Source of the DNA: an uncultured candidatus Porisulfidus sp.
GTDB lineage: Bacteria; Pseudomonadota; Gammaproteobacteria; Poriferisulfidales; Oxydemutatoraceae
Length of the DNA: 64,000 bases
Direction of reading: 5' to 3'
Assembly: GCA_965215125.1 (NCBI GenBank)
Contig: OZ244052.1
Location: 480,001 to 544,000 of the forward strand
Shown here: piece by piece, positions 844-61,539 of the stretch
How positions within the stretch are numbered: the first letter of the stretch is position 1
How the letters are laid out: every line of letters starts with the position of its first letter
Notes under the pieces: generated by a model
What the model was told of the DNA's origin: nothing
Seen by the model: only the letters and a program-made list of their open reading frames with translations
Database searches by the model: none
Made by a program: the position numbers and the translations under genes

Positions 844-1985
844 AATCTCTGACTCATCATCGGGCGGTGCCTAAGTACCGATATTAACATACCGAAAGAT
901 GCCAATACCGATACGACCGAACTTCCGCCATAACTCATTAACGGCAAAGGCACACCTACAACCGGTAGTAGCCCGCTAACCATGGCAACACTAATAAAAA
1001 AGTAGGTAGCAAAAGAAAATGTCAAGCTCCCTGCCAACAGGCGACCGAAATAATCCGCTGCGTTGAGTGTGATTATTATACCCCTAACAACTATGGCAAG
1101 GTATATTAAAATCAATAAACAGCAACCTATAAAACCAAATTCTTCGGCAAACACCGAAAAAACGAAATCGGTTGAATGTTCGGGAACAAAGCCCAAATAC
1201 GACTGGGTGCCGTTCAACCAGCCTTTACCCCATAGCCCCCCCGAACCGATGGCAACCTTTGATTGATAAATATGATAACCGCCTTCGGCAAGGTAATTTT
1301 CCGGGTTTAAGAACACGATAATACGCTGCCTTTGATATTCGTGTAGCGAGTCCCATATCGGTACCGACAAAGAAGCCAACAAGACTACAAATAATAGAAT
1401 CCACGACCATCGTATGCCGGCTAAAAAGATGACCCATGCAGCGGAGATAAAAATTAACACCGATGTGCCTAAATCGGGTTGTTTGAGAACTAAAATAATC
1501 GGTATCGCTACAACAATCAGTGCCAACAATATAGAACTTAACGACGGTGGATAGTGCTCACGACTTGCGAATATCTTGCAAAGGAATAAAGGCACCGCAA
1601 ATTTAAGTATCTCCGACGGCTGGAAGGTTAGCAACCATAGATTGAGCCATCGTTGCGCGCCTCTGCCCACTTCTCCTACAATTAATACAAAAACTAGAAG
1701 TATCAAACCTGCGGCATATAATAACCATGCCCATCTGCGATAAACGATCAAAGGCACCGACGCAAACGCGATAAAGCAGACAAAGCCTATAGCCAAGCGC
1801 CACCCTTGCTTCCATAACAACTCGGTACTTTGCCCTCCCGAACTGTATAGCATGATTAAACCCAAACACGATAACGTAAGAAGCAAAATCAATAGCGGAT
1901 AATCTATCTTTGAAAATATATCTCTCGCTAAAATTCGTAATTTAACAAAGGAAATGACATTCCAATTAGTAACATCGGTGACCAT
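840..1985 (-). CDS. rodA: Rod shape-determining SEDS glycosyltransferase RodA
   Basis: GAQRWL, FQPSE, QPDLGT, GSGGLWGKG, PEHSTDF and PLMSYGGSS motifs; follows PBP2. Confidence 0.97.
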   Translation of the reverse strand: MVTDVTNWNVISFVKLRILARDIFSKIDYPLLILLLTLSCLGLIMLYSSGGQSTELLWKQGWRLAIGFVCFIAFASVPLIVYRRWAWLLYAAGLILLVFVLIVGEVGRGAQRWLNLWLLTFQPSEILKFAVPLFLCKIFASREHYPPSLSSILLALIVVAIPIILVLKQPDLGTSVLIFISAAWVIFLAGIRWSWILLFVVLLASLSVPIWDSLHEYQRQRIIVFLNPENYLAEGGYHIYQSKVAIGSGGLWGKGWLNGTQSYLGFVPEHSTDFVFSVFAEEFGFIGCCLLILIYLAIVVRGIIITLNAADYFGRLLAGSLTFSFATYFFISVAMVSGLLPVVGVPLPLMSYGGSSVVSVLASFGMLISVLRHRPMMSQRL

Positions 1986-3839
1986 CTATTCGATATGCTC
2001 TAAAGCACTTAGAGTCGTTTTTCCGAAATAGGCATCTAAGACTCGGCGAGCAACCGGAGCTGCATATTTTGAACCGCTACCGCTATGCTCAACGACGACC
2101 GCAATTGCAATTTCCGGTGTCGACGGTGGTGCAAAGCCGATAAACATCGCATGGTCACGCAACTCTCTCTGCAATTCAACTTCTTTTTCTTTCTTTCTAT
2201 CAAGAATACGACGAGTTTGTACGGTACCGGTTTTGCCGGCAATTTTATATTCGGCAAATTGCCCGATTCTATAAGCGGTTCCGTTGGGACGGTGTACCGT
2301 ATCGATCATCGCGTCTATCACATAATCCCAATCTTGTTGCGAATTATCACTGAGCTGTACGGGTGATTCGGGTGTTTTCTTTTGCCACTCGGTCCGCCCT
2401 GTTTTGCGGTGTGCCTGCACTAAATAAGGAGTTACTTTTTTTCCTCTATTGGCAAGCGTTGCGGTCATTACCGCTAGCTGTAAGGGGGTTGCCAATAAAT
2501 AACCTTGTCCTATGCCCATCATGATCGTTTCTGCCGGAAACCATTTTTCGTTGCGTTTAGAATATTTCCAGTGCGGGGTCGGCACCAAACCCGACGCCTC
2601 GGAAGTCGTATCAATTTTTGTTTTGTTTCCTAATCCAAATTCCTCAAGGAAAGAAGACAATTTCGACACACCCATGCGATAGGCGACATCGTAAAAGAAT
2701 ACATCGCACGACTGCGTTATCGACAAACTTAAATCGACTAAACCGTGTCCGTCCTTTCGCCAATCTCTGTAATGACGTTTGAAACCGGGAATCTGATAAT
2801 AAGGGCCCGCATACATCCGATACGACGGATCCACGATTTTGAATTTCAAAGCAGCCAATGCGACTACCGGCTTGAGCGTAGAACCGGGTGCATACTGTCC
2901 ACTAAGCGCACGATGAAAAAAAGGATTAAATGAATTATCGGCGTTTAGCTCTCGGTATTTTTTCTCCGAAAAACTATAGGTAAATAAATTAGGGTTGAAG
3001 GTCGGCTTACTAACCATCGCCAACACACCACCGCTACGCGGATCCAATACCACAACCGCCCCTTGATGTTCTGCCAATGCCTCGTAGGCAGCCCGCTGCA
3101 AGTGAGTATCCACAGTCAACATAATATCGTCGCCGGCCTGCGCGGGACGCAAATCGGTACTTGCGAGTATCTTTCTATGCGCATTAACCTCCACTCTACG
3201 CAAACCTAATTTTCCGCGTAGCATAGGTTCATAATATTTTTCTATGCCGGTCTTGCCTATATCATCCCGACGCAAATAATTTTTTTTATCAATTCTGCCT
3301 AAATCTTCGGAATCTACGGTACCGACATAACCTACGACATGCGAAAACAAATCATTCTCGGGATAATAACGAACTAGACGACCGACGACTTCTAGTTCCG
3401 GCATACGATAAAGTTCGGAAGCTATCCGTGCCACTTCCTCCTCGAATAGATTGGAGCGTAAAACCAATCTGTGGGAATTCGGATTTGTCCTAATTCTATT
3501 TTCCAAATCGGATAGTGCTCGGGCATCTAGATTCGACAAACTTTGCAACTTTTCTATAACGGTATCTCTATCGGTAATTAGATCGGGTAAAAGTTCGAGG
3601 TCGTAGCTCGTGCGGTTTCCCGCCAGGACCCGCCCTTTGCTATCGTATATAAGTCCACGCTGTGGGCTAATAGAAGTTAGATCGAAGCGATTGCCGTCCG
3701 ATGTTGTTTGATAGTCGCTATATTGGGTAACTTGCAAATTATATAAGTTATATAGCAGTAATGAGAGCAACCCCAAAATAATAATGGCAGCGGTTATAAC
3801 TCTAGCCTTAAAAAGTCGCTTGGGTATATAATCCGCCAC
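1986..3839 (-). CDS. mrdA: Penicillin-binding protein 2
   Basis: N-terminal TM, RGLIYD, PGSTLKP (SxxK), SCD (SxD), KTGT. Confidence 0.97.
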   Translation of the reverse strand: MADYIPKRLFKARVITAAIIILGLLSLLLYNLYNLQVTQYSDYQTTSDGNRFDLTSISPQRGLIYDSKGRVLAGNRTSYDLELLPDLITDRDTVIEKLQSLSNLDARALSDLENRIRTNPNSHRLVLRSNLFEEEVARIASELYRMPELEVVGRLVRYYPENDLFSHVVGYVGTVDSEDLGRIDKKNYLRRDDIGKTGIEKYYEPMLRGKLGLRRVEVNAHRKILASTDLRPAQAGDDIMLTVDTHLQRAAYEALAEHQGAVVVLDPRSGGVLAMVSKPTFNPNLFTYSFSEKKYRELNADNSFNPFFHRALSGQYAPGSTLKPVVALAALKFKIVDPSYRMYAGPYYQIPGFKRHYRDWRKDGHGLVDLSLSITQSCDVFFYDVAYRMGVSKLSSFLEEFGLGNKTKIDTTSEASGLVPTPHWKYSKRNEKWFPAETIMMGIGQGYLLATPLQLAVMTATLANRGKKVTPYLVQAHRKTGRTEWQKKTPESPVQLSDNSQQDWDYVIDAMIDTVHRPNGTAYRIGQFAEYKIAGKTGTVQTRRILDRKKEKEVELQRELRDHAMFIGFAPPSTPEIAIAVVVEHSGSGSKYAAPVARRVLDAYFGKTTLSALEHIE

Positions 3840-3851
3840 TATTGGTAAATG

Positions 3852-4379
3852 CTATGATTTATAACGTTTGATGCTTTCGCTAATCTCTTGCTGCATTTTT
3901 TCGGGTGCCAACCAACCTTCTACTTTTACCCATTTATCGGCCTCGAGCTTCTTATAATGTTCAAAAAAGTGGACAATTTGATCAAGCAGATTTTGGTCCA
4001 ACTGTTCTACACTTTCTATGTGGTCGTAGCCGCTATTCATACCTTTTTTAGGCACTGCCAGCAATTTAAGATCACGGCCCGATTCATCGCTCATGTCGAG
4101 CGCACCCAAAGGGCGACTCGGTATCACACACCCTACCATCAAAGGCACCGACGTGACAACTAAAACATCCAAGGGGTCACCATCCTCGGAGAGAGTTTGA
4201 GGAACAAAACCATAATTTGCAGGGTAATACATAGGAACATTCATAAACCTGTCAATCCATACCGAGTTACTCTCTTTATCCAGTTCGTACTTGATGGGAT
4301 CGGCATGCGCCGGTATTTCTATGACAACGTTCAGTACCTCGGAAGTTGAGTCGGTCGCAGGTATTCTGTCTATATTCAT
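3852..4379 (-). CDS. ppa: Inorganic pyrophosphatase (family I)
   Basis: YPANYGFVPQTLSEDGDPLDVLV and HFFEHYK. Start moved to the ATG at 4379 (MNIDRIP) to avoid overlap with grxD. Confidence 0.95.
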   Translation of the reverse strand: MNIDRIPATDSTSEVLNVVIEIPAHADPIKYELDKESNSVWIDRFMNVPMYYPANYGFVPQTLSEDGDPLDVLVVTSVPLMVGCVIPSRPLGALDMSDESGRDLKLLAVPKKGMNSGYDHIESVEQLDQNLLDQIVHFFEHYKKLEADKWVKVEGWLAPEKMQQEISESIKRYKS

Positions 4380-4392
4380 GTTCTGAGATCTT

Positions 4393-4722
4393 TTATTGTT
4401 GAGCAGATGTTGCAACGGCATCGGTCACCATTTTCTGCAACTCACCTTTCTCAAACAGTTCAACCACGATGTCACACCCACCGACCAATTCACCGTTGAT
4501 ATAAATCTGGGGGAATGTAGGCCAGTTTGCAAAACGGGGTAGATTCTGAAAAATATCGGGATCCAACAATACATTGACATATGCGAATTCATGACCGCAA
4601 TGTTGCAACGCCATAGCTGCCCTACTTGAAAAACCACATTGCGGCATCTGAGGGGTACCTTTCATATAGATAATAACGGCATTATCTTCAACCTGTTTTT
4701 TAATTTTGTCCATTATATTCAT
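4393..4722 (-). CDS. grxD: Monothiol glutaredoxin Grx4
   Basis: KGTPQMPQCGFS, WPTFPQIY and GGCD motifs. Confidence 0.96.
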   Translation of the reverse strand: MNIMDKIKKQVEDNAVIIYMKGTPQMPQCGFSSRAAMALQHCGHEFAYVNVLLDPDIFQNLPRFANWPTFPQIYINGELVGGCDIVVELFEKGELQKMVTDAVATSAQQ

Positions 4723-4848
4723 TGAGTTTCTCCAATCATAAAATCATTAAATTATATACAAAGTAAGCATTATCCTATTGTACAAGGCTTTGACGGAGAT
4801 ACAATATGACGGACGAAATAAAAACTCGTCCTTATTGAAAGGTCTAAA

Positions 4849-5661
4849 TCAATAGAAAGCTGTGCGGCGGCGGTGATAGTATTTGACATCGCGAAACGAT
4901 GCCCTGCCTTCTTTACCGACACCCATATAGAGTTCTTGTATATCCTCGCGTTCCATCATCTCTTTTGCACTACCTTTGGTAACAACACGGCCGTTTTCTA
5001 TAACATAACCGTAATCTGCATAATTTAAGGCGATGACCGCATTCTGTTCGGCAACCAAGAAACTAACCCCTTCATTCTTATTTAAGTCCCTGACTATCCT
5101 AAACACCTCTTCGACAAACTGCGGTGCTAATCCCATAGAGGGTTCATCCAAAAGGATAAGGCGCGGACGCGCCATCAGTGCGCGACCTATCGCAGTCATT
5201 TGTTGCTCGCCACCCGATGTGAAACCGGTTAGACTTTTACGTCGATCCCGAATACGCGGAAAATACTCGTAGACTTTTTCTAAATCTTCTTTTATTTCGG
5301 CTTGGGTTGCCGTCTTTCTTATAAAAGAACCCGTTAATAGATTCTCTTCGACGCTAAGACGAGGAAAACAGTGGCGCCCCTCGAGAACCTGAACCACGCC
5401 TCCTTTGACTAGATCGTACGGCATCATTTCGGCAATATTATCACCGTTGTATTCTATAGAACCTTTGGTCACCACACCTCGTTCGGCATGTAATAAATTT
5501 GAGCATGCTTTGAGTGTAGTGGTTTTTCCGGCACCGTTGGCACCCAACAACGAGACGACACTCCCTTCGGGCACTTCCAAGGTTACACCGCGCAATGCCA
5601 GTATCACCTGACTATATACAACTTCTATGTTTTGTATCGATAGTAGTATTTTTCCTACCAT
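4849..5661 (-). CDS. Branched-chain amino acid-type ABC transporter ATP-binding subunit (LivF-like)
   Basis: Walker A GANGAGKTT, SGGEQQM, LLDEPSMGLAP, EQN. Confidence 0.92.
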   Translation of the reverse strand: MVGKILLSIQNIEVVYSQVILALRGVTLEVPEGSVVSLLGANGAGKTTTLKACSNLLHAERGVVTKGSIEYNGDNIAEMMPYDLVKGGVVQVLEGRHCFPRLSVEENLLTGSFIRKTATQAEIKEDLEKVYEYFPRIRDRRKSLTGFTSGGEQQMTAIGRALMARPRLILLDEPSMGLAPQFVEEVFRIVRDLNKNEGVSFLVAEQNAVIALNYADYGYVIENGRVVTKGSAKEMMEREDIQELYMGVGKEGRASFRDVKYYHRRRTAFY

Positions 5662-5682
5662 AGCTTATCTTGATTCTCGATT

Positions 5683-5721
5683 AAAAAAAGAGGGCAGGAA
5701 GATATTTAATCTCCCTACCCT
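5683..5721 (-). terminator. Putative intrinsic terminator or attenuator between the SBP and ATPase genes
   Basis: Imperfect hairpin (agggcaggaagat/atctccctaccct) followed by a T run on the minus strand. Confidence 0.55.
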
Positions 5722-5749
5722 TATTCACATATAATTGATTATTTATGAA

Positions 5750-7111
5750 TTAAATATCGAAGTTATCTCTATCTTCCGGATTGTTGCAATCGCGTTGCTT
5801 GAACTCAGGATTTTCTTCAACGTATTTTGCGGCGTTTTCATTCACGACTTGGCGAGAAAAATCGCTACTGCCGTCAATCCAATCGCTAATCAACTTCCAC
5901 TCGCGTGCATTGGCATCCCATTGCTGGAAACGTGCCAAGTGCACAGCTGCATGATCCATGCAGGTTACCTGTATAGGCGGTACGACATCCATCAGACCCA
6001 TTTCGTTCAGATCATCTTGGGTTAAGTGGATGTTTTCAAAACCCCAGCGCACTTGTGCGCTTGAAAGTTCTTTACCGAAACGCTTTTGCGCAACACGGAT
6101 TGCCTCCGAAGACATAACCGCAGCCCAAAGGCCTAAGTTCCAGTAGACACTCCCTATGCGAGAACGATCTTCCAGATCACCTTTGCCTCGGTTGTAAAGA
6201 CTTTCGATAATTTCCTGGGCCACCGGGAAATCGGTACCGGCACGATGCACTGTCACCGCTTGATAGCCGTCCGCCGTTTTACCGGCAGGAATTACATCTT
6301 CGTCCGAATTGCTCCACTCGTTGCCGATTAGATTAGACACCGAGTAGCCGGTGCGAGCGGCAGTCTGCATAGCGACCGGATTCATAACACCCCAACCTCT
6401 TAAAAAGACATAAGCGGGCTTGAGTTTACGAATCTTCAGCCATTGAGAACCTTGCTCGTTACCGGGGTGGGGAACTTCTATAGGCTCGTGTGTGAAACCG
6501 TATTGCTCACCTAATCCGGTCAAGAACTCATTGGCTTCACGGCCATAAGGCGAACCGTGATATAAGGTCACGATAGTCTCACCTTTGAGTTTATCCATGC
6601 CTCCCATTTGCTGACCCATGTGCTTAATCGTTGCAAAAGCAAAGTCATAAGCATTGGTGCCCAAAGGGAATTGATAAGGGAAAACATCGCCGCGTTCGGT
6701 TTCCGTTCTACCGTGGTTTACACTGATAATGGAAATTTTATCACGACGTCCTTGCTCAATTAGGCCGGATGATATACCTACACTCAGAGGGTCAAAATAA
6801 AGAGCTTCACCTAAGTCACTTTTCTTTTGACGGTGATAGCATTCTATACCTTTAGTTCTGTTGTATTCTGTTTCGCATTCGTCCCAGACTACCTTGACGC
6901 CACCAATACCACCATCGCGCTCGTTCAAGAGCGTGTAGTAGTCAATGATGCCTCCAAAATAGCCGGTACCGCCTGCGGCATAGGGACCAGTTCGGTAGAC
7001 AGGCATAGGAACATAGTATTGCGCATCAGCTCCATGATTGCCTGCAGCTGCCGGGAGCGAACCCAACAACATGGTTACCATCGTGGTCGTAAGTACGAGT
7101 AATTTTTTCAT
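5750..7111 (-). CDS. ABC transporter substrate-binding protein (LivJ/type I periplasmic binding fold)
   Basis: Signal peptide MKKLLVL...AAA, YRTGPYAAGG, NERDGGIGG, WGVMNP. Start set at 7111, after a GGAGGA RBS. Confidence 0.88.
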   Translation of the reverse strand: MKKLLVLTTTMVTMLLGSLPAAAGNHGADAQYYVPMPVYRTGPYAAGGTGYFGGIIDYYTLLNERDGGIGGVKVVWDECETEYNRTKGIECYHRQKKSDLGEALYFDPLSVGISSGLIEQGRRDKISIISVNHGRTETERGDVFPYQFPLGTNAYDFAFATIKHMGQQMGGMDKLKGETIVTLYHGSPYGREANEFLTGLGEQYGFTHEPIEVPHPGNEQGSQWLKIRKLKPAYVFLRGWGVMNPVAMQTAARTGYSVSNLIGNEWSNSDEDVIPAGKTADGYQAVTVHRAGTDFPVAQEIIESLYNRGKGDLEDRSRIGSVYWNLGLWAAVMSSEAIRVAQKRFGKELSSAQVRWGFENIHLTQDDLNEMGLMDVVPPIQVTCMDHAAVHLARFQQWDANAREWKLISDWIDGSSDFSRQVVNENAAKYVEENPEFKQRDCNNPEDRDNFDI

Positions 7112-7231
7112 TATTTCCTCCATAATTACTTTTGATCAAAAGTCACTGCGTCCTTGCAGCTTCCTTACTAAAATTTTAACTAGTTACTATTAACTAATTA
7201 ACTAGGCTCCCTTAAGCTCTCGTCCTTGAGA
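7112..7231 (-). promoter_or_regulatory. 5' leader with multiple GGA motifs in hairpin loops (CsrA/RsmA-binding-like)
   Basis: Minus strand has TCTC-AAGGAC-GAGA (7231-7218), GCT-TAAGGG-AGC (7217-7206), AAGGAAG, CTGC-AAGGAC-GCAG (7159-7146), then ATGGAGG overlapping the RBS. Confidence 0.6.
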
Positions 7232-7411
7232 AATTGCATAATGGAGTCTATCTAAACGAAGTAACCTACCATATATTCAAACATACTGCAATAATTCACA
7301 AAAATTATATTAAATTACTATGTTTTACTTGCCTCGATGGTGTGTAATATATTAATTTTAGCTGTTTCATGCGACTTTTGAATTTATGATAGACCACGCC
7401 CGCAGAGGCAG

Positions 7412-7686
7412 AATAGAGCCGCCGATTGAACCGGTAGGTTAATCGGCAATTCAATGATGTCCGTCCTAAAGTTTAATACTTGCACAAATCCAATCGCTTT
7501 GCGCCACCCGATAATGGTTTCCATATTTGACAACCACCCCGTCAGGCTCAATAGAACCGCCGATTGAACCGGCAGGTCAATCGGCGTGACTTTGTTCAGA
7601 ACCTCAACATGATTGCTAATCGCATGCATTGCAAAATGCATAGGCCACCCCTCCGAAGGAGGGGAATGTACCGTCCTACAGTTTGT
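7412..7686. repeat. Mosaic of REP-like palindromic repeats (families A, B and C)
   Basis: Two AGAACCGCCGATTGA..TCAATCGGC units (7412-7447, 7550-7610), CAACCACCCCGTCAGGC (7531-7547), CCCCTCCGAAGGAGGGGAAT (7644-7671) and GTCCTACA. Confidence 0.85.
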
Positions 7687-7821
7687 AGATACTTTTTCAA
7701 CGACCTGATTTCATTTTATTGTAACATATACACTTGAAAATTCTTGAAATTAAAAATACCGCCCCTACATGTTAGTCAATTTGTTGTAGCACACATACCA
7801 ACGAACAATCAAAACTCATAA

Positions 7822-9485: not shown

Positions 9486-9670
9486 ATAGAACCGCCGATT
9501 GAGCCAAGTAAACCCGCCACTTGAGCCGGTAGGTCAGTCGGCGTGACTTCGTACGAAATCTAAATATCGTGTCCATTAGGGATATTACATATACCAAAAT
9601 CAATCGGCGTGACGTCGTACAAAACCTCAACATCGGTATGTAGGACGGACAAGCTAGGGCTTGTCCTCAC
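9486..9670. repeat. Mosaic REP-like repeats (families B and C)
   Basis: ATAGAACCGCCGATTGAGCC..., CAATCGGCGTGAC..AACCTCAACAT (matches 7579-7610) and GTAGGACGGACAAGC..GCTTGTCC. Confidence 0.8.
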
Positions 9671-9721
9671 AGGCATAAAGTCATAGGGTGTGCAAATCGG
9701 ATACCTTATATGATGCAATGA

Positions 9722-11344: not shown

Positions 11345-13030
11345 TCAATTTTTGCTGGAGAACAATCCTTTAATAACATCCCCCAATGAAGTCTTAGCAG
11401 GCTTCTTGGTGGTATAGCCTTTGGCTATTTCTTTTTGTTCGTCTTTCTCTTTTCTCTTTACCGATAAATTGATTCTACAATTTCTTCTATCAATACCGAT
11501 GATTTTAGCTTCTATTTCTTTTCCTTTTTCTATTTCTATTCCAACCGGGGAATCCTCGCCGTCTTTCTCATGCACCAGCTCGGAATACGGTATATATCCT
11601 CTCACGTGCTCGGCCAAATTAATCATCACATATTTGTCACCCGCACTTATCACCGTACCTTTCACGACCGAACCTTTGGGATATATGTTTAGATAATCAC
11701 CCATAGGATCTACGTCAAGTTGCCTAATGCTCAAAGAAACCCTGTTACGCTTAACATCGACTCCTGTTAGAGCAAACTTAACCGTATCACCTTTTTTATA
11801 TTTGCGTATCGCTTGTTCGGGGTGTTCTATATTAGAAATATCATTAATGTGAACCAAACCGTCTATACCGAAATCTCCCAAACCCACGAAAATTCCGAAG
11901 TCGTTGATAGATTTAATCCGACCTTCCATTTGGGTTCCGGGCGAATGTGCCTTAGCAAACTCTTTCCATGGGTTCGGAACACACTGTTTAATACCCAGCG
12001 ATATTCTACGTTTCTCTTTGTCAATATCAAGTACCATGACATCTATCTCTTCACCTTCGGATACGGCTTTAGACGGGTTTATAGTTTTATTTACCCAGTC
12101 CATCTCGGAGATATGCACTAAACCTTCCACATTGTCTTCTATTTCTACGAAACAACCATAATCGGTGATGCTGGTGACCTTGCCCTTGATACGTTCCCCT
12201 TTAGGGTAGCGTTCAATTAATCTATCCCATGGATCTTCACTCAGCTGCTTGAGTCCCAAAGAGATACGATTCTTTTCTTTATCAACCTTAAGTATTTTGA
12301 CATTGATCTCATCACCCACGGATAATACTTCGGAGGGTCGGTGTATGCGCTTCCATGCCATATCGGTAATATGAAGCAACCCGTCAAAACCGTTAAAACC
12401 GACAAAGGCACCATAATCGGTAATATTTTTTACTACGCCTTTTACAACCGTTCCACTTTCCAAATTTTTCAGCATTTCTTCTCGATCAATGCTTCCTTCC
12501 GTTTCTAACGCCGCCCGTCTTGAAATAACAATATTATTACGATTACGGTCGAGTTTGATCACCTTAAAATCTAAGGTTTTGCCTTCAAGATGCTCAAGTT
12601 CGCGCGTCGGCTGTATATCGGCTAGAGAGCCCGGTAAGAAAGCCTCTATACCCAAAATGTAGACTATAAATCCTCCTTTAACTCTCCCTTTCAGGACACC
12701 TTGAACCGTGCTACCAGCCTTGTAGATCTCCTCCAACCGCTGCCATGCTTCAATAATCTTCGCTTGTTCACGGGATAGCACCGTCTCGCCGAAACCATCC
12801 TCTAGACTTTCTACGGCGACTTCCACAAGATCTCCTTCATTGACCTCCAGTTCACCGTCGGTGTCGTAAAATTGCTCTATCGGTATAACACCCTCCGATT
12901 TTAATCCCGCATTAACAATGACACTGGTTTTGGTAATATCGGTTACCTTCCCTTTAATCAGAGAACCTATATCTATCTTTTGATTTTGCATTTTCTGCGA
13001 ATCAAAAATATCGGAAAAATTTTCCATCAA
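11345..13030 (-). CDS. rpsA: 30S ribosomal protein S1
   Basis: Repeated S1 domains (KNITDYGAFV, DGLLHITDMAW, EGLVHISEMDW). Confidence 0.97.
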   Translation of the reverse strand: MMENFSDIFDSQKMQNQKIDIGSLIKGKVTDITKTSVIVNAGLKSEGVIPIEQFYDTDGELEVNEGDLVEVAVESLEDGFGETVLSREQAKIIEAWQRLEEIYKAGSTVQGVLKGRVKGGFIVYILGIEAFLPGSLADIQPTRELEHLEGKTLDFKVIKLDRNRNNIVISRRAALETEGSIDREEMLKNLESGTVVKGVVKNITDYGAFVGFNGFDGLLHITDMAWKRIHRPSEVLSVGDEINVKILKVDKEKNRISLGLKQLSEDPWDRLIERYPKGERIKGKVTSITDYGCFVEIEDNVEGLVHISEMDWVNKTINPSKAVSEGEEIDVMVLDIDKEKRRISLGIKQCVPNPWKEFAKAHSPGTQMEGRIKSINDFGIFVGLGDFGIDGLVHINDISNIEHPEQAIRKYKKGDTVKFALTGVDVKRNRVSLSIRQLDVDPMGDYLNIYPKGSVVKGTVISAGDKYVMINLAEHVRGYIPYSELVHEKDGEDSPVGIEIEKGKEIEAKIIGIDRRNCRINLSVKRKEKDEQKEIAKGYTTKKPAKTSLGDVIKGLFSSKN

Positions 13031-47145: not shown

Positions 47146-47193
47146 GACCACCCCGTCAGGCACAGCCTGCCACCCCTCCACAGGAGGGGAATG
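47146..47193. repeat. REP-like double hairpin, family A (full copy)
   Basis: GACCACCCCGTCAGGCACAGCCTGCCACCCCTCCACAGGAGGGGAATG, between convergent genes. Confidence 0.85.
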
Positions 47194-51683: not shown

Positions 51684-53261
51684 TTAGCTGTCAAAAATTA
51701 TTCTGAAACCTAGATACGGTGCCTTGAACGAAGCAGGAAGAGGATTTTCAAAATCAATGCGGGCGGTTGCTTCTCCCGGCAGTATGTAATTACCGCCTTT
51801 GGCAATAATCGCAAAACCTTGTCCGGCGGTGCTTAGGCTTTGTGTCCATTCCGAAACATTGCCACCCATATTGATGACACCGGCAGCATTGATATCGCCG
51901 TTCTGCTCCAGAGCGGAGAGCGGTTTTATCAGTTGTCTCTCGGCAGTGGCCACATAGTCGGGATTAAAGGTGTTGCCCCAAGGATAAGAGTAGCTACCCA
52001 TTGAAGAGGCGGCAATCCATTCGAAATTATTCGGCAATCTTCCGCCTGCCCAATTTGCAAATGCATAAGCCGACCACCAATCTATATCGGTTGCCGGCAA
52101 GTCGTCGTTTTGATAATCGTCCAACCACGGCGGACTATAATCGTGTTCTTCGGGCTCCTTCTCGTTTGCATAAAGCCCGTAGCGCACCAAGGGATCGTTG
52201 ACGAAACGTCTGTATTGCGCTCGGGTCACCTCGTGGCGCAATATCCGAAAATCGTTATGGCGATGTTTTTTATCAACCAGTTTTCCAATGATATCGAGTT
52301 GTTTGCGGGATAACCCCGACCCCAATAGTCCCGGTATCTTAGCGTCGTCGGGGAGACCGATACGATACTGCCCTGCATCTACACGTACCGTTTGCGGATG
52401 TTTTTCGGTCCACGGTATTTTCTTCGGTTGCTCGTCGTAAACACATCTGAAACTCACATAAGGAGAACGATACTTCGCTTCCACGGTACGATAAAAATTG
52501 TTTAAGCTATAAATCTCGTAGGGTTTGTTATATGCGTTGCCACCGTGTATACTCGGCTTCGCTTCCGCGTCAATACCTTGCGCCCATTCGGATGCGACAT
52601 TACCCAGATTGTGTATACCCTGCGGTGTATCCATCTCCTTATGCAAACCGCAGCGTTGTGCGGCGTTGAGCCTAGGGTCCAAATACGGCCAACCCTCGGA
52701 GTTGAAGTCGTTCCCCCACGGATAAAGCCGACCTTCGGAACCGCTTGCAATCGCAATCCATTCCGTACGCGTCGGCAGTCGCCCACTGCTCGCTTGACAA
52801 TAAGCATACGCGTCGTAATAGCTAACTCCGTTTGCAGGCGCATCCAAACGGCCGCTAATTTTGTGGTCTCGGCTTATGCTCCTATAAGACCAATTTTCAG
52901 GTTGTTCGGGATGTGCTATATCGGTCGGGTTATAAAGTGCATACCATTTTTCAAAAGTATAGAAATCCTTTTGCCGTACTTCGCATTGATCCACCCATAA
53001 AGGAGGCAACTGCACATTGCGCTCGGATTCCTTGAATATCGGATCAAAAGAGCGGATGCGCCCGAAGGCATATAGATACTCGCTCAAAATTGCATCCAGT
53101 TGCGCACCGCGCGCTTGAGTGGTTTGATCATCTTGGGATATATCAACCTGCACCGTATCAAATTGATAAAAAGCGGTACGCAGTTTATATAAACTAAATA
53201 CCGATAGTGCAATGATTATTGCTGCTACGAGTAGACTCCCCAGTACAGAGGCCGGCTTCAT
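51684..53261 (-). CDS. Membrane-anchored protein with two tandem FGE-sulfatase (SUMF1/C-type-lectin fold) domains
   Basis: N-terminal TM; two copies of EV...P...[VI][SD][YW]..AYA[YF]...GRLP...EW...YPWGN...G..N[LM]..N.SEW...GGN..FR. Confidence 0.85.
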   Translation of the reverse strand: MKPASVLGSLLVAAIIIALSVFSLYKLRTAFYQFDTVQVDISQDDQTTQARGAQLDAILSEYLYAFGRIRSFDPIFKESERNVQLPPLWVDQCEVRQKDFYTFEKWYALYNPTDIAHPEQPENWSYRSISRDHKISGRLDAPANGVSYYDAYAYCQASSGRLPTRTEWIAIASGSEGRLYPWGNDFNSEGWPYLDPRLNAAQRCGLHKEMDTPQGIHNLGNVASEWAQGIDAEAKPSIHGGNAYNKPYEIYSLNNFYRTVEAKYRSPYVSFRCVYDEQPKKIPWTEKHPQTVRVDAGQYRIGLPDDAKIPGLLGSGLSRKQLDIIGKLVDKKHRHNDFRILRHEVTRAQYRRFVNDPLVRYGLYANEKEPEEHDYSPPWLDDYQNDDLPATDIDWWSAYAFANWAGGRLPNNFEWIAASSMGSYSYPWGNTFNPDYVATAERQLIKPLSALEQNGDINAAGVINMGGNVSEWTQSLSTAGQGFAIIAKGGNYILPGEATARIDFENPLPASFKAPYLGFRIIFDS

Positions 53262-53422
53262 AGCCTTTTTTTGCCTCCTTTACCTAGGAGCTTACCGCCT
53301 TTCAGACCGCCGCCTCTCATTAGACCGCCGCCTCTCATCAGACCACCGCCCATCAATCCACCACCACCGGATCTGCCTAGGAACCTAGATAGCAAACGAA
53401 ATAACATAAACATTCCTCTCAT
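53258..53422 (-). CDS. 54-aa cationic glycine-repeat peptide (not in the ORF track)
   Basis: GGAGG-AAAAATT-ATG; MRGMFMLFRLLSRFLGRSGGGGLMGGGLMRGGGLMRGGGLKGGKLLGKGGKKRL*; its stop overlaps the FGE gene start (ATGA). Confidence 0.75.
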   Translation of the reverse strand: MRGMFMLFRLLSRFLGRSGGGGLMGGGLMRGGGLMRGGGLKGGKLLGKGGKKRL

Positions 53423-53492
53423 AATTTTTCCTCCGTGCTTTTATCGTAAATCCATTATAAACAGATTGGCAGTAAAATGGTGACTACGCAAA

Positions 53493-53519
53493 CAACCACC
53501 CTGTCAGGCGCGCCTGCCA
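53493..53519. repeat. Partial family A repeat
   Basis: CAACCACCCTGTCAGGCGCGCCTGCCA. Confidence 0.7.
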
Positions 53520-53532
53520 ATCCACTGCCCAT

Positions 53533-55269
53533 CTATGCGGTAGTTCCGATGAATCTGCGCAACACGCCGAACAGTAGCAACAACGCAGCAAAACCGTAGA
53601 ATAGGAGTGCTTCGTTTTCCTTTCTATAGGGAACGCTGGGATAATGCGTCATCACCTGCGTTTGGGCAACGGTTACACTGTTTTGATCAGCCGCAAACCG
53701 CAAACTACCGTCTCGATTGATCGCCGCATAAACGAAAGCCAGCAGATAATCGTCCCTTTGCGGTGATACGATAGTTGCAATACGCCACTGATATTGATCG
53801 GGATCGGCTTGTTTGCGAGGCAATAAAATAATACTGTCCTTATCTAGGTTTATTTTTAACCCTTTATAAATCGCCGGATAAAGTCCCACATGCATTCTAA
53901 CGACGGCATCCCCGGGTAAGTCGGGAAAAGGCATTTGTTGCGAATTATTCAACAGCAAAGCATTCTCCAGCAGTTGGTTCGGATGCACCGCCAATGCCGT
54001 CACATCGTTATCCTCGGTTTGCTGCTCCACATACAAAGGATTTTTATCGTCACCGGATGTCGGGAACATCACGCTTTTAAGATACTCGTAGAAGTTGATC
54101 TCTTCGTCGCTCAATGTCGGCATCATTGCCGCAGGTAGCAATATGTCGTCTGCAAACTTGAAATTTTGCAACATCAAATAATTTCCTTCGCCGACAGAAC
54201 GTTGTGCTTTTTCCATAAATTGAAAAAGTGCCGCTAAAATGTTTGCGTATTCTAGTTCCTCGCCGTTCTCGTCGCCCTCCGACATATTGAGATATACATA
54301 CTCCTGTTCTTTCTCCGAAGACGACTTTGCCGAAGACGGCGTTGCAGTTCTAAACCGCATGACACTCGGGAAATTACTACTTTGGTTCCCTCGCCCTAAG
54401 CTCTCCGCCATCATCTTTGATAAAGCATCAAACATCTCATCGGCAGGTTCGTCCGATCCGCCCCCACTATACTCTTCGCTTTGAGAGTCGGCATTCTCGG
54501 CATCGTAAGCGAGATCGTCAAAGGGATAATTTTCATCGCTGGTCACCGCACCAAGCGAAATATCGGCAGGCATATCTTCCCATATATTCTCATTATTGCC
54601 TCCCTCGCCTTCGTTTTCTCTAAACTGCTCGGAGTTACCCGGTTGTTCCGAGTCATCTTCGCTTGTTTCATCGGATTCGGCAATTACTTCTCCCGCACCG
54701 GGTTCGCTTTTGTTGTCATCCTCTACAGGATTGCCGTCATAACCGATGAAGTGCCAATGGCGAGGCATCGGCCCGTAATCTCCGATGATAGACATAGTCA
54801 AATAAAACGTACGGATATCGTAAATATCTATGCGTATATAACTTCTTTGTATAGGATTCATCTTTGCCAAAAATTTATCAAACGCATTATCGGGTTGCAA
54901 TAACTCATCGCGGCTGAATCTCTGCTTTGTGTAATAATCCTGTATATAATCGGAGTGCAGTTCGATAATCGGCATAATAGAAGGATGCGGATTGGCATCC
55001 ATAGGACTGTTGACATAATCGTGTAGCCTAGCCGGCTTAGAGGTCGGCAGACCGTTCATCACCACCGAGGTTGCTAAATCGCGGCTGAGCAATACCGATA
55101 TATCTTCTACTTCGCTGATACGCGCCTCTTCTTGTTCGTGCTCGATCATCATCGTAAGCACGATCAAAATGATAATCATCGCAACGCTGTTTGCCAGAAT
55201 GTCCGCTAACGCGATGCCGGCAAAGCCGGGAAGTAGGCTTCCTTTTCGTGATTGCGCCGCCGTTGCCAT
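53533..55269 (-). CDS. Hypothetical 578-aa membrane protein with MotB/ExbD-like N-terminal TM (Asp), acidic linker and C-terminal TM
   Basis: IALADILANSVAMIIILIVL; D/E-rich middle region; C-terminal LLFYGFAALLLLFGVLRRF. Confidence 0.6.
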   Translation of the reverse strand: MATAAQSRKGSLLPGFAGIALADILANSVAMIIILIVLTMMIEHEQEEARISEVEDISVLLSRDLATSVVMNGLPTSKPARLHDYVNSPMDANPHPSIMPIIELHSDYIQDYYTKQRFSRDELLQPDNAFDKFLAKMNPIQRSYIRIDIYDIRTFYLTMSIIGDYGPMPRHWHFIGYDGNPVEDDNKSEPGAGEVIAESDETSEDDSEQPGNSEQFRENEGEGGNNENIWEDMPADISLGAVTSDENYPFDDLAYDAENADSQSEEYSGGGSDEPADEMFDALSKMMAESLGRGNQSSNFPSVMRFRTATPSSAKSSSEKEQEYVYLNMSEGDENGEELEYANILAALFQFMEKAQRSVGEGNYLMLQNFKFADDILLPAAMMPTLSDEEINFYEYLKSVMFPTSGDDKNPLYVEQQTEDNDVTALAVHPNQLLENALLLNNSQQMPFPDLPGDAVVRMHVGLYPAIYKGLKINLDKDSIILLPRKQADPDQYQWRIATIVSPQRDDYLLAFVYAAINRDGSLRFAADQNSVTVAQTQVMTHYPSVPYRKENEALLFYGFAALLLLFGVLRRFIGTTA

Positions 55270-55273
55270 CGCT

Positions 55274-55798
55274 TTACTGCCTCTTGATAACGCGGTCTAT
55301 ATAAGGCGGGATATCGTCGAGCGAGACCGACTTCAATAATTCGCGATCGGCGATAATCCAACCTATAGTCAATTTGTCCCGTATCGTAGGCATTGTCAGA
55401 CGCATACATTCTCGGGCTATTGCCATCGTTCTAACACTGCCTTCCATGATAATAAAGATGAGTTGCTGTTTGGGCTTACCGTAAATCTTTCTGGCGTAGC
55501 TCGCAAAAGGACTATTGGGCGCGCAAATCTGGTCTTGTTTTAAGACATCGCCACTTTCCACAATGCGCAATTCATCGGGAAAAGTCAGTATGGAATAACC
55601 GGTGCCCTGCACACCCCAACTCACTTTGTAATCCCCTTCGGTGTTTATCCCCTCCAAACGTTCCTGTAACGAAAGCTGAGAAAAAGTGTTTATCAGTATA
55701 AACAAAACCAAAAGCAGAGCAAAAACACCGCCGAAAATCTCAACCATCGGCGCGTTGTTTTTCTCTTGATCCTTGAGGCTATCATGACGACGCATCAT
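55274..55798 (-). CDS. Hypothetical ExbD/TolR-like single-TM protein
   Basis: Basic N-terminus, then NNAPMVEIFGGVFALLLVLFILI (compare ExbD NxxPxxD..L.LL..F); 6 bp downstream of the TolQ-like gene. Confidence 0.55.
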   Translation of the reverse strand: MMRRHDSLKDQEKNNAPMVEIFGGVFALLLVLFILINTFSQLSLQERLEGINTEGDYKVSWGVQGTGYSILTFPDELRIVESGDVLKQDQICAPNSPFASYARKIYGKPKQQLIFIIMEGSVRTMAIARECMRLTMPTIRDKLTIGWIIADRELLKSVSLDDIPPYIDRVIKRQ

Positions 55799-55804
55799 TT
55801 CATC

Positions 55805-56845
55805 TTAAGGTCTAACAGCGAGTATCCGGTTTTCGTAGTTCGTTAGCAGATTGTTCTCCCATCGCTGTATGATGGTTTGTAACAAAGTCAACACGATGCT
55901 CAAAGACAAAGCAATCAATGTTGTATCAAAAGCAATTCCCAACGGGGCTATCGCATCGCCCAACTGATTGGAAAGATTGGCTAAGCCTTGCTGCTCGCCG
56001 ATAATCTTTTGTATACCGTCGGATGCAAGCGAGATACCGTAGACGGTACCTATAAAACCCAAAATAGGAATAGACCAATTGAAATAACGAGGCAAAATAT
56101 AGAAATCCGCCGACTTTTTCCAGATCAAATCAATATAGGTATCCTTCGTTACGGAGTTTCGATCGTCCAGCAAGCGATGGTAAGTGCGCATCAACAACGA
56201 GCGGTCGGGCTTGTTGATCAGCCGCTGCTCGTTCCATAGCGTATAGCTCTTGCTTAGCAACAGGATCAGACCCCAGCAGAACAGTAGAATAGTGAGCGGC
56301 GGTATAAACCCGCGAGCCAAAAACTTATTCGTCACTACTATCAGATCCGGATAACGAACCGCAGTGTTATAAATCATCAGCAGTATCGTCGTAGATAAAA
56401 TAATCGCAACCGCCAATGTCAGTACTAAGGGAGGACCCGAGAGTATCGACTCAAGTTTGCGCACCAAATCCTGCTGATATTCCGAGGAGGTGTTATGGTT
56501 GAGTAGTATATAAAATATATACAACGCAATGACCGAACTCAATAACGGCAGAGACTTCTCGGGCGTATAACCGTCGGATAGCAAAACCTGATTATTGAGC
56601 AACGGGATGAATACCTGATAAGTAACGATTAGGCTAATGGCAATCAAAGACAATAATATTAAAAAGCTCAACACCTTGAGCATAGTCTGTTTCTTTAACA
56701 TCAGTCCGGCAACCGACAATAAAGCAATCGCTAGACCTACTCCCAAACCGCCATTCGCAGAATAGCCTATGTTAATGCCCAAACTGATAAACGCGGCGGG
56801 GAATAGTACAAACGATGTGATAATAATAATAATTTGGTTCAACAT
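55805..56845 (-). CDS. MotA/TolQ/ExbB proton-channel family protein with extra N-terminal TM helices
   Basis: WSIPILGFIGTVYGISLA and LGIAFDTTLIAL signature helices. Confidence 0.85.
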   Translation of the reverse strand: MLNQIIIIITSFVLFPAAFISLGINIGYSANGGLGVGLAIALLSVAGLMLKKQTMLKVLSFLILLSLIAISLIVTYQVFIPLLNNQVLLSDGYTPEKSLPLLSSVIALYIFYILLNHNTSSEYQQDLVRKLESILSGPPLVLTLAVAIILSTTILLMIYNTAVRYPDLIVVTNKFLARGFIPPLTILLFCWGLILLLSKSYTLWNEQRLINKPDRSLLMRTYHRLLDDRNSVTKDTYIDLIWKKSADFYILPRYFNWSIPILGFIGTVYGISLASDGIQKIIGEQQGLANLSNQLGDAIAPLGIAFDTTLIALSLSIVLTLLQTIIQRWENNLLTNYENRILAVRP

Positions 56846-56922
56846 AACAATACAACTATTTTATATAAAGTTTCAGGTGGGAAATTAAATTATAATACAT
56901 TCTATGGCTATCGGTGTGCGTT

Positions 56923-57516
56923 ATGATAAAAATTATTCCCTTAAAAAATTTAAGTAATCATTTTATTAAAGGATATGCTTTGTATCCGCCTTTCCCTACG
57001 GATACCCGAACGGCAATTTTCGCACTCGGGTGCTTTTGGGGCGCGGAGCGTTGCTTCTGGCAACAACCGGAAGTTTATCTAACCGCAGTGGGCTATGCCG
57101 GCGGAGCGACTGCCAACCCCGACTATCGAGCGGTTTGTAGCGGTAACACCGGGCATACCGAAAGCGTGCTGGTCGTGTATCACGACAATCAAAACACCGA
57201 TACGCATAGTGTCTACGAAAAACTGCTCAAGATTTTCTGGGAGACTCATGACCCGACCCAAGGCATGCGACAAGGCAACGACATCGGCAGCCAATACCGC
57301 TCCGCGATATTTTGCTTCGACGACTCCCAATACCAACTAACACTAAAAACACGCGAAACCTATCAAGCCCGTCTAAACCGATCGGGCTACGGACAGATTA
57401 CAACCGAAATCATTCGCACCGCAGATTTTTACTACGCAGAAGATTACCACCAGCAATATCTTGCCAAAAACCCCGGCGGCTATTGCGGCTTAGGCGGCAC
57501 CGGCGTTCGCTTGTAA
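56923..57516 (+). CDS. msrA: Peptide methionine sulfoxide reductase MsrA
   Basis: [44 protein letters not shown]. Confidence 0.96.
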
Positions 57517-58595: not shown

Positions 58596-58668
58596 TATGG
58601 TTGTTTGAAATTAGAATTCGCTTCGTATTATAAAGTATCTCCGACAGTAAGTGCTATTGCAAGGCGAC

Positions 58669-58716
58669 ATTCCCCTCCTATGGAGGGGTGGCAGGCGTAG
58701 CCTGACGAGGTGGTTG
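58669..58716. repeat. Family A repeat (inverted full copy)
   Basis: ATTCCCCTCCTATGGAGGGGTGGCAGGCGTAGCCTGACGAGGTGGTTG. Confidence 0.85.
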
Positions 58717-61312: not shown

Positions 61313-61539
61313 CGTAGGGGAATGTGCTTGTGCAAATACGCGGCGACCACCCCATGGGAAGGCTTTACATTTTGTACTATGTATCAAGGTTCTGCACAAT
61401 GTCACGCCGATTAACCTACTGGCTTAATCGGCGGTTCTCTTGCGCCTGCCATCCCTCCAAAGGAGGGGAATGTACTAGTTCAGACCGCGGCGACCACCCC
61501 GTCAGGCGAAGCCTGCCACCCCGCCGAAGGAGGGGAATT
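61313..61539. repeat. Mosaic of family A, B and C repeats
   Basis: GTAGGGG, GCGACCACCCC, TGTCACGCCGATTAACCTACTGGCTTAATCGGCGGTTCT, GCCTGCCATCCCTCCAAAGGAGGGGAAT, and a full family A copy at 61490-61539. Confidence 0.85.

Follow-up and report, generated by a model that had tools for sequence, protein, structure and literature searches.

A lineage-restricted small open reading frame for a glycine-rich polycationic peptide at an operon junction of sponge-associated Gammaproteobacteria

Two kinds of short bacterial open reading frames (ORFs) come closest to the element described here. Translationally coupled upstream ORFs, in which the stop codon overlaps the start codon of the next gene, are covered by a review (PMC12548453) and by a separate study (PMC13285730), and lineage-restricted small ORFs of intergenic regions, together with bacterial ORFans, are covered by two further papers (PMC11188072 and PMC12315717). 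The ORF in question, P0001, lies on the minus strand at positions 53258..53422 of a stretch of 64,000 nucleotides (nt) from an uncultured Candidatus Porisulfidus sp. (contig OZ244052.1, positions 480,001 to 544,000), referred to below as the window. It consists of 54 codons plus TGA, begins with ATG and would encode a Gly-rich polycationic peptide. The small ORF follows the third gene, and precedes the fourth, in a minus-strand cluster of uniform orientation, which encodes a MotA-like protein of 346 amino acids (aa), a 174-aa protein, a 578-aa protein and a protein with FGE-sulfatase-fold domains (the FGE-like protein).

The small ORF appears to behave both as a coupled upstream ORF and as a lineage-restricted intergenic small ORF, and it is probably young. 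Its stop codon overlaps the downstream start (ATGA) in all four sequences in which the region was aligned and, as in known coupled upstream ORFs, this 4-nt overlap is accompanied by an internal Shine-Dalgarno sequence of the downstream gene; a hairpin that may mask this sequence is predicted. The overlap equals the distance of -4 nt estimated for the direct junction of the 578-aa and FGE-like genes in 18 of 50 other loci. Unlike coupled upstream ORFs, however, it encodes a newly inserted, clade-specific repeat peptide and is not a conserved operon gene, and any dependence of FGE-like translation on it is putative. With lineage-restricted small ORFs it shares a length below 75 codons, an intergenic position, few close relatives and a family that is undetectable; it differs from them in its frame-specific constraint, its strong Shine-Dalgarno sequence and the presence of a candidate parent, namely the 3′ end of the neighbouring gene. 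On balance, we favour the view that it is a real, translated, lineage-restricted small gene, which was born at the junction of the 578-aa and FGE-like genes and took over their coupling, and whose product is a polycation of the membrane face.

The small ORF and its junction with the FGE-like gene

The predicted 54-aa peptide contains 20 Gly (37%), 7 Arg and 5 Lys residues, and no Asp or Glu; its isoelectric point is about 12 and its net charge about +11.5. It is encoded by the only Gly-dense ORF of the window. Codons 19-41 (53300..53368, minus strand) form a repeat core of the type (GGGLM[R/K])n, in which the number of units varies by allele. The core includes an exact 18-nt array at 53302..53350, which was reported by Tandem Repeats Finder with a period of 18, 2.7 copies, 90% matches and a score of 84, together with a second, looser row at 53295..53337. 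The 18-nt unit gave two matches with up to three mismatches, compared with 0.03 expected. The flanking 15-nt units (encoding GGGLM, GGGLK and GGKLL) are, as judged from the sequence, degenerate copies of the repeat. Residues 19-54 of the window allele are exclusively G, L, M, R and K, and a single Ser is found in the core of the allele from locus L001, one of the three related loci (L001, L002 and L003) that were aligned with the window.

A full GGAGG Shine-Dalgarno sequence (53430..53434, minus strand) is located 7 nt 5′ of the ATG and is invariant in the four aligned sequences. For the combination GGAGG-N5-9-ATG, the window has 11 occurrences, whereas shuffled sequences have 6.8 ± 2.3, and at least 11 were counted in 7 of 100 shuffles. 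The site is a strong one and full sites of this kind are uncommon in the window, yet the motif alone falls within the chance range for this window and is not statistically exceptional.

At the 3′ end of the small ORF, its TGA (53260..53258) overlaps the ATG of the FGE-like gene (53261..53259), forming an ATGA junction (53258..53261, minus strand) that is present in four of the four sequences. The Shine-Dalgarno sequence of the FGE-like gene, AAGGAGG (53274..53280, minus strand), lies inside the small ORF, where it coincides with codons K-G-G, 12 nt before the FGE-like ATG; it is likewise invariant. One base after it, just before the ATGA, there is a run of seven A residues (53266..53272, minus strand; Lys-Lys-Arg codons), which is replaced by A8 in L001 and by A6 in L002 and L003. 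Relative to the small ORF, the FGE-like gene occupies the -1 frame, which is open from 7 codons before the FGE-like ATG.

The junction is predicted to fold into an mRNA hairpin (53239..53288, minus strand), in which the Shine-Dalgarno segment 53278..53273 (GGAGGC) pairs with codons 4-5 of the FGE-like gene (53252..53247) and the ATG is placed in the loop. The 226-nt segment spanning the junction folds with a z-score of -1.98, and 7 of 200 shuffled sequences fold equally well. A consensus fold of the four sequences retains both helices; 41 of 44 cells are paired, compared with 36-66% when the partners are slid. An ATGA overlap combined with a predicted hairpin masking the Shine-Dalgarno sequence represents the classical layout of translational coupling. 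Ribosomes finishing the small ORF would open the hairpin and expose the Shine-Dalgarno site of the FGE-like gene, and the same ribosomes would then re-initiate at the FGE-like ATG.

A candidate -10 box, TATAAT (53454..53459, minus strand), ends 31 nt 5′ of the ATG of the small ORF. As read from the alignment, it has the same sequence in the window, L002 and L003, and reads TACAAT in L001; a promoter scan of the window did not report TATAAT at this position. The spacer of L002 must contain a separate promoter for the small ORF and the FGE-like gene, because the upstream gene of that locus is divergent, and the small ORF of the window probably also has its own promoter. A terminator-like hairpin (53479..53500, minus strand) is placed between the stop codon of the 578-aa gene and the putative promoter region.

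An earlier note on this DNA, prepared from the letters alone, had drawn attention to an unannotated small ORF with a strong GGAGG ribosome-binding site, and this observation is confirmed. The translation given there, with 20 Gly, 12 Lys/Arg and no acidic residue, agrees exactly with the ORF read from 53422 to 53258; the strand, which was unstated, is minus. The in-frame tandem DNA repeats described in that note were recovered as an 18-nt period with degenerate 15-nt flanking units. Its proposal that the ORF is coupled to the FGE-fold gene and supplies its ribosome-binding site holds for the layout, since both the ATGA overlap and the internal AAGGAGG are in place; functional coupling is what this layout suggests.

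Distribution, constraint and history of the junction

A word-indexed protein search with the peptide returned two matches among 880 candidates, P0002 (56 aa) and P0003 (49 aa). Both are independent public gene calls with N- and C-termini as in the window allele and with a different number of repeats. A profile built from six alleles and compared with 1.84 billion representative proteins retrieved P0003 and P0126 only. The latter (44 aa) matches residues 1-33; it is nearly identical, with one substitution, to the allele of the L002 type through residue 32, and its last 12 residues are unrelated. This divergence may reflect a frame-breaking variant, an insertion or a contig artefact. No fusion of the peptide was found among longer proteins (129-2000 aa), which is weak evidence. 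The peptide has no match in Pfam, NCBIfam or PADLOC, no usable match was obtained with it as query in the ESM Atlas, and no Rfam match, including leader families, was found over 53100..53700 at E values up to 1. The small ORF therefore belongs to no curated protein or RNA family.

With 34 aligned FGE-like homologues as the query, 63 loci were obtained from 185,579 species genomes, and small ORFs in these loci were located by direct ORF scanning; tblastn with the 54-aa peptide missed even L001-L003. A related Gly-rich ORF abutting the FGE-like start was detected in three of the 63 loci, i.e. L001 (73 aa), L002 (60 aa) and L003 (66 aa). The Gly filter was otherwise passed by L020 and L033 alone, with unrelated GC-rich frames. 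L001 belongs to a metagenome-assembled genome of Candidatus Oxydemutatoraceae, whose FGE-like protein is 95% identical to that of the window, while L002 and L003 (93% and 92%, respectively) come from metagenome-assembled genomes of uncultured Candidatus Porisulfidus. Papers in which the names Oxydemutatoraceae and Porisulfidus occur include some on sponge holobionts. The small ORF is thus an orphan restricted to a narrow clade of sponge-associated Gammaproteobacteria (relatives of Ca. Oxydemutatoraceae and Ca. Porisulfidus). Of the seven alleles known (44-73 aa), six (49, 54, 56, 60, 66 and 73 aa) differ by whole repeats, the seventh being P0126. The repeat number accordingly varies between strains, as the earlier note had suggested. 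The absence of such an ORF from homologous loci, named in that note as a refutation, is largely borne out, with three occurrences in 63.

In an alignment of the four genomes, conservation begins about 60 nt before the ATG and continues to the end of the ORF; farther upstream, the DNA of the window and L001 cannot be aligned with that of L002 and L003. The start codon is invariant, along with GGAGG, the ATGA overlap and AAGGAGG. Substitutions fall mostly at codon position 3 and least often at position 2. Nei-Gojobori ratios of nonsynonymous to synonymous differences (pN/pS) range from 0.07 to 0.42 across the six pairs, and the pooled value of 0.25 is the lowest of all six frames (0.39 and 1.78 in the other sense frames; 0.65, 0.53 and 1.89 in antisense). 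The other two sense frames contain 2-15 stops in each of the four sequences. On this pattern, it is quite likely that the small ORF is translated and maintained.

The distance between the 578-aa and FGE-like genes was estimated in 50 loci in which it was possible to place both the 3′ boundary of the 578-aa homologue and the beginning of the FGE-like gene, with start codons chosen heuristically. Its median is -4 nt; the value is exactly -4 in 18 loci, the genes overlap in 27, and in 47 the distance does not exceed 106 nt, so there is no room for the small ORF in these loci. Translational coupling of the 578-aa gene to the FGE-like gene appears to be the ancestral relation. Three exceptions were found: L001 (466 nt, holding the small ORF), L011 (893 nt) and L044 (672 nt). 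In L011 the FGE-like homologue (5125..7722) carries a Q/S/G/D-rich tandem-repeat N-terminal extension of about 290 aa, fused in frame before the transmembrane anchor, and this extended ORF begins at the stop codon of the 578-aa homologue. In L044 a 154-aa ORF with hydrophobic segments (5482..5946) separates the FGE-like gene from the 578-aa homologue; it represents a second, unrelated insertion into this junction. In both L011 and the window, the junction gained an expandable tandem-repeat, presumably disordered cytoplasmic segment. The L011 extension is acidic to polar and is part of the FGE-like protein, whereas the segment of the window is 54 aa long, polycationic and encoded by a separate ORF in another frame.

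The surroundings of the small ORF are rearranged within the clade. In L002 and L003 the MotA-like, 174-aa and 578-aa genes are absent from the 6 kb upstream, and the small ORF, the FGE-like gene and a downstream porin gene are retained; the small ORF travels with the FGE-like gene. The upstream space of these two loci (1..6000) is occupied by genes for an NtrY-like kinase, a sigma-54 activator and a DUF4390 protein on the opposite strand, with an additional unrelated 343-aa ORF in L003. A DDE transposase gene lies between the FGE-like and porin genes of L002 (7690..9237). A dispersed intergenic repeat of about 100-140 nt, possibly of the repetitive extragenic palindromic (REP) or miniature inverted-repeat transposable element (MITE) type, occurs in copies that are 85-96% identical. 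Window copies are located at 7551..7645, 9600..9671, 61386..61438, 61500..61521, 47168..47193 and 58668..58693, and others at L001 5582..5681 and at L003 5548..5683, 7655..7790 and 11914..12009. The repeat is found in the spacers upstream of the small ORF in L001-L003, so mobile or repetitive DNA appears to have invaded the junction.

A possible source of the small ORF is the neighbouring gene. The best local match of the first 22 residues of the peptide within the 578-aa protein aligns MFMLFRLLSRFLG with LLLLFGVLRRFIG at residues 562-575 of 578, with a score of 35. Shuffling of the query gave at least this score in 11 of 2000 trials with the whole protein as target and in 27 of 5000 with its last 25 residues. 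At the DNA level, the terminal part of the 578-aa gene and the beginning of the small ORF agree by eye at only about 20 of 45 positions, and for this reason the idea of a duplication draws on the protein-level match. The C-termini of 578-aa homologues consist of a transmembrane segment and a short basic tail; a Gly-repeat tail is present in none of them. As a lead, these data suggest that a duplicate of the terminal part of the 578-aa gene and of the junction gave rise to the small ORF, which then grew by expansion of its repeats.

The following course of events may be envisaged. In the ancestral operon the stop codon of the 578-aa gene would have overlapped the FGE-like start, coupling both genes. 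Extra DNA would then have parted the two genes in this clade, with the motor genes having lost their adjacent position in two genomes. The ATGA junction would now be filled by the small ORF, which has a strong Shine-Dalgarno site and probably a promoter for itself, and the product would combine an amphipathic cationic N-terminal helix with a disordered (GGGLM[R/K])n tail of variable length.

The predicted product and the neighbouring genes

In an AlphaFold2 model, codons 2-18 of the small ORF (53369..53419, minus strand) form an amphipathic N-terminal helix, RGMFMLFRLLSRFLGRS, and the remainder of the peptide is disordered. The predicted local distance difference test (pLDDT) value is about 83 over the first ten residues, with a mean of 60.9. 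The helix has a hydrophobic moment of 0.65 and a mean hydrophobicity of 0.01; Arg residues at positions 2, 9, 13 and 17 lie on one face, as judged by reading the sequence. An amphipathic leader followed by a repetitive cationic core had been proposed before, and the model agrees with it. The predicted helix is too polar to serve as a transmembrane segment or as the core of a signal peptide: the four Arg residues leave no uninterrupted membrane-spanning helix in the peptide, and by inspection alone no export signal was recognized, with Arg 9, 13 and 17 breaking the hydrophobic stretch. The peptide is most likely located at the cytoplasmic face of the inner membrane and made in step with the membrane-anchored FGE-like protein. 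A complex prediction for the two partners scored 0.01 against a mark of 0.32, which counts neither for nor against binding.

In-plane amphipathic helices that target proteins to the membrane are known from the targeting sequences of MinD and FtsA and from SpoVM. The small peptide resembles them in its short cationic amphipathic helix, with a moment of 0.65 and too polar to span the membrane. It differs in the N-terminal position of the helix and in the polycationic Gly-repeat tail behind it, and its membrane binding is a prediction. Glycine-rich cationic antimicrobial peptides are known from animals and plants. Compared with these as a class and not by sequence, the small peptide shares a high Gly content, a high positive charge, the lack of acidic residues and an amphipathic segment; unlike them, it is bacterial and chromosomally encoded, it shows no secretion signal, and the scanned ORFs include no exporter. 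The protein searches with the peptide revealed no sequence relationship to this class. Our search of the literature on glycine-rich cationic tandem-repeat small proteins found nothing pertinent.

Several other assignments were considered and rejected. Single-transmembrane small subunits of membrane complexes, such as KdpF, CydX and AcrZ, do not compare with a helix that carries Arg 2, 9, 13 and 17 and has a mean hydrophobicity of 0.01. A transcription-attenuation leader peptide would be separated from the next gene by terminator and antiterminator structures, and here the ORF overlaps the next start and leaves no spacer; a leader match in Rfam is also absent in the segment searched. Resemblances to tachykinin-like ‘GLM’ motifs and to RGG boxes were dropped, as the defining processing sites or context are absent.

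The product of the FGE-like gene (51684..53261, minus strand) is 525 aa long and combines a transmembrane anchor at its N-terminus with two FGE-sulfatase-fold domains (Pfam E = 1.5e-48); the gene is followed by a terminator-like hairpin. More than 1200 homologues of this protein were found. Among 34 homologues that were aligned, 32 possess a short basic N-terminal tail followed by a hydrophobic anchor, and two are N-terminally truncated. According to the positive-inside rule, this cationic tail and anchor place the FGE-fold domains probably in the periplasm. Matches of these domains in the PDB are remote (E ~1e-8) and, in each domain, are confined to the N-terminal portion.

Upstream of the small ORF there are genes encoding the 578-aa protein (53533..55269, minus strand), which has an acidic middle part, the 174-aa protein (55274..55798, minus strand) and the 346-aa MotA/ExbB-like protein (55805..56845, minus strand). 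The 578-aa and 174-aa proteins have no family in Pfam, NCBIfam or PADLOC, and the ESM Atlas gave no usable match to the former. The assignment of the 346-aa protein is weak (Pfam E = 0.0038, below the gathering score), as is its ZorA-type match (E = 0.0057), the sole PADLOC result among the five proteins of the operon.

The MotA-like, 174-aa, 578-aa and FGE-like genes are syntenic in most of the 63 loci. This four-gene operon (51684..56845, minus strand, in the window; L004-L057) was recognized in about 50 gammaproteobacterial loci, mostly in sponge-associated metagenome-assembled genomes, and also in Vibrio thalassae (L054) and Aliivibrio finisterrensis (L055). A literature search for operons combining MotA/ExbB with an FGE-sulfatase (formylglycine) gene found nothing pertinent. 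The rest of the window is core chromosome, with rpoB/rpoC, tuf, gyrA, mreBC and aromatic amino-acid genes. The msrA gene, encoding peptide methionine sulfoxide reductase (56914..57516, plus strand), divergently adjoins the MotA-like gene. The window shares this adjacency with 12 of the 63 loci; as the small ORF is missing from 11 of these 12, the adjacency is not tied to the Met-rich peptide.

Forty-four ORFs of the window were scanned, and none of them encodes a maturase of ribosomally synthesized and post-translationally modified peptides (RiPPs), a C39 peptidase, a bacteriocin exporter or other dedicated exporter, or a secretion or immunity-like protein. The only ABC_tran protein among them (4849..5661) is encoded beside a periplasmic binding protein, 47 kb away.

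Competing explanations and significance

Certain observations weigh against a translated, coupled and membrane-associated product. The carriers comprise only four closely related genomes and three metagenome proteins, one of which, P0126, could be a broken copy. The estimates of constraint derive from few, non-independent substitutions and from a repeat alignment that is ambiguous, and since all repeat units are multiples of 3 nt, length changes would be expected to stay in frame even without selection. A Pro-rich antisense frame (53271..53483, plus strand; 70 codons, TTG start) is stop-free in all four sequences with a pN/pS of 0.53, although such a frame is expected opposite GGN repeats. Coupling may be dispensable for the FGE-like gene, given the AAGGAGG in front of it, and covariation in the hairpin is not significant (one compensatory pair; the score is reached by 81 of 500 shuffles). 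Membrane binding is deduced from composition and from the AlphaFold2 model, with its mean pLDDT of 60.9. Alternatively, the ORF may be incidental: a G-rich, triplet-compatible microsatellite would have expanded in a new 5′ leader of the FGE-like gene and been conserved through recent ancestry and through constraints on RNA and DNA imposed by the Shine-Dalgarno sequence, the hairpin and the initiation region, with any peptide being functionless. The very narrow distribution, the low complexity of the product, its disorder after residue 18, the possible loss of the frame in P0126 and an antisense strand that is equally open agree with this explanation, as do units of 15, 18 and 21 nt that preserve the frame automatically, C-terminal GKGG codons that coincide with the FGE-like Shine-Dalgarno site, and a first 27 nt that are invariant, with zero synonymous changes. 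It accounts less readily for a pN/pS of 0.25 that is the lowest among six frames, for amino acid changes that are conservative (R/K, L/M), for a full GGAGG at ideal spacing and an ATG kept in all four genomes, and for the 2-15 stops per sequence in the other two sense frames. We regard an incidental ORF as rather unlikely.

Functions other than that of a coupled membrane-face peptide fare less well. An antimicrobial or host-interaction peptide, membrane-active in the manner of leaderless bacteriocins and released by the symbiont, would fit the charge of about +11.5, the 37% Gly and the strongly amphipathic N-terminal helix, and its diversifying use would fit the repeat-number polymorphism. The substitution pattern, however, is purifying and not diversifying, the chromosomal surroundings are of the housekeeping kind, a signal peptide is not apparent by inspection, and the scanned ORFs include no gene for a C39 peptidase/ATP-binding cassette (ABC) exporter, immunity or secretion. 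The consensus of double-glycine leaders, which end in GG and have conserved hydrophobic and acidic positions, does not fit either: the peptide has no acidic residue and, with G19-G20 taken as the cleavage site, positions -4 and -8 are both Arg. A class II bacteriocin or microcin of the double-glycine type was rejected on these grounds and for lack of a C39-peptidase ABC exporter and an immunity gene. The likeness to antimicrobial peptides is one of physico-chemical composition and otherwise unsupported, and we consider such a role improbable. Still less probable is a role as an N-terminal cytoplasmic tail of the FGE-like protein, either detachable or fused to it through a -1 shift on the A6-8 run during translation or transcription. 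The FGE-like gene does lie in the -1 frame, open 7 codons before its ATG, AAGGAGG and an A6-8 run are present in all four sequences, homologues bear variable cationic and sometimes Gly/Arg-rich N-terminal tails, and L011 has its 290-aa low-complexity repeat extension in frame at the same junction. The length of the A run is nevertheless not conserved (6, 6, 7 and 8), no canonical X XXY YYZ heptamer could be read in the zero frame, and the fused form did not appear among longer proteins, although this last point is weak evidence. Least credible of all is the proposal of the earlier note, in which the peptide serves as a RiPP-type precursor or as cargo or substrate for the FGE-like/MotA-like system. 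The coupled position next to an FGE-fold gene and the architecture of a leader with a repetitive core would suit such a role. The small ORF is present in just 3 of 63 loci, however, and 47 of 50 homologous operons, with their FGE-like genes, have no room for it, which shows that the system works without the peptide; L002 and L003, conversely, have the peptide and no motor genes in the 6 kb upstream. Sulfatase-type FGE recognizes substrates through the core motif C/S-x-P/A-x-R. This motif is absent in six aligned alleles; the window allele is devoid of Cys and Pro, and its two Ser residues (S12 and S18) precede RFLG and GGGG. The FGE-like domains are probably periplasmic and the peptide has no export signal. 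The core, limited to G, L, M, R and K, offers none of the usually modified residues (Cys, Ser, Thr and others) in positions 19-54 of the window allele, and the 44 scanned ORFs include no other maturase-type Pfam family and no C39 peptidase or dedicated exporter. Of the earlier interpretation, the ORF itself, its coupling layout, the amphipathic segment with a repeat core and the variation in repeat number consequently stand, and the ideas of cargo, substrate and RiPP are not supported.

For the lineage-restricted small gene that we favour, a more specific history can be put forward tentatively. The gene may have been caught soon after its birth: the last ~14 codons of the 578-aa gene, covering the end of a transmembrane helix and a cationic tail, would have been duplicated with the junction, acquired a start codon and a Shine-Dalgarno sequence and grown by a GGN-rich microsatellite, giving a selectively maintained microprotein that controls translation of the FGE-like gene. 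A bolder variant, in which a -1 shift on the A run fuses the peptide to the FGE-like anchor, is less likely. As the number of repeats still differs between strains, the length of the tail might, on this history, modulate an interaction on the cytoplasmic side of the membrane.

The small peptide is not a conserved component of the MotA-like/FGE-like system. It has no bearing on the core function of that system, because nearly all carriers have the system without the peptide, and the uncharacterised, conserved four-gene operon may be the more rewarding target. To our knowledge, well-documented bacterial gene births with an identifiable parental sequence are rare. The locus described here combines a before-state, preserved in 50 homologous operons, with a candidate source, ongoing repeat expansion and frame-specific constraint, and may thus provide a compact test case for the emergence of small ORFs at operon junctions and for the takeover of translational coupling.

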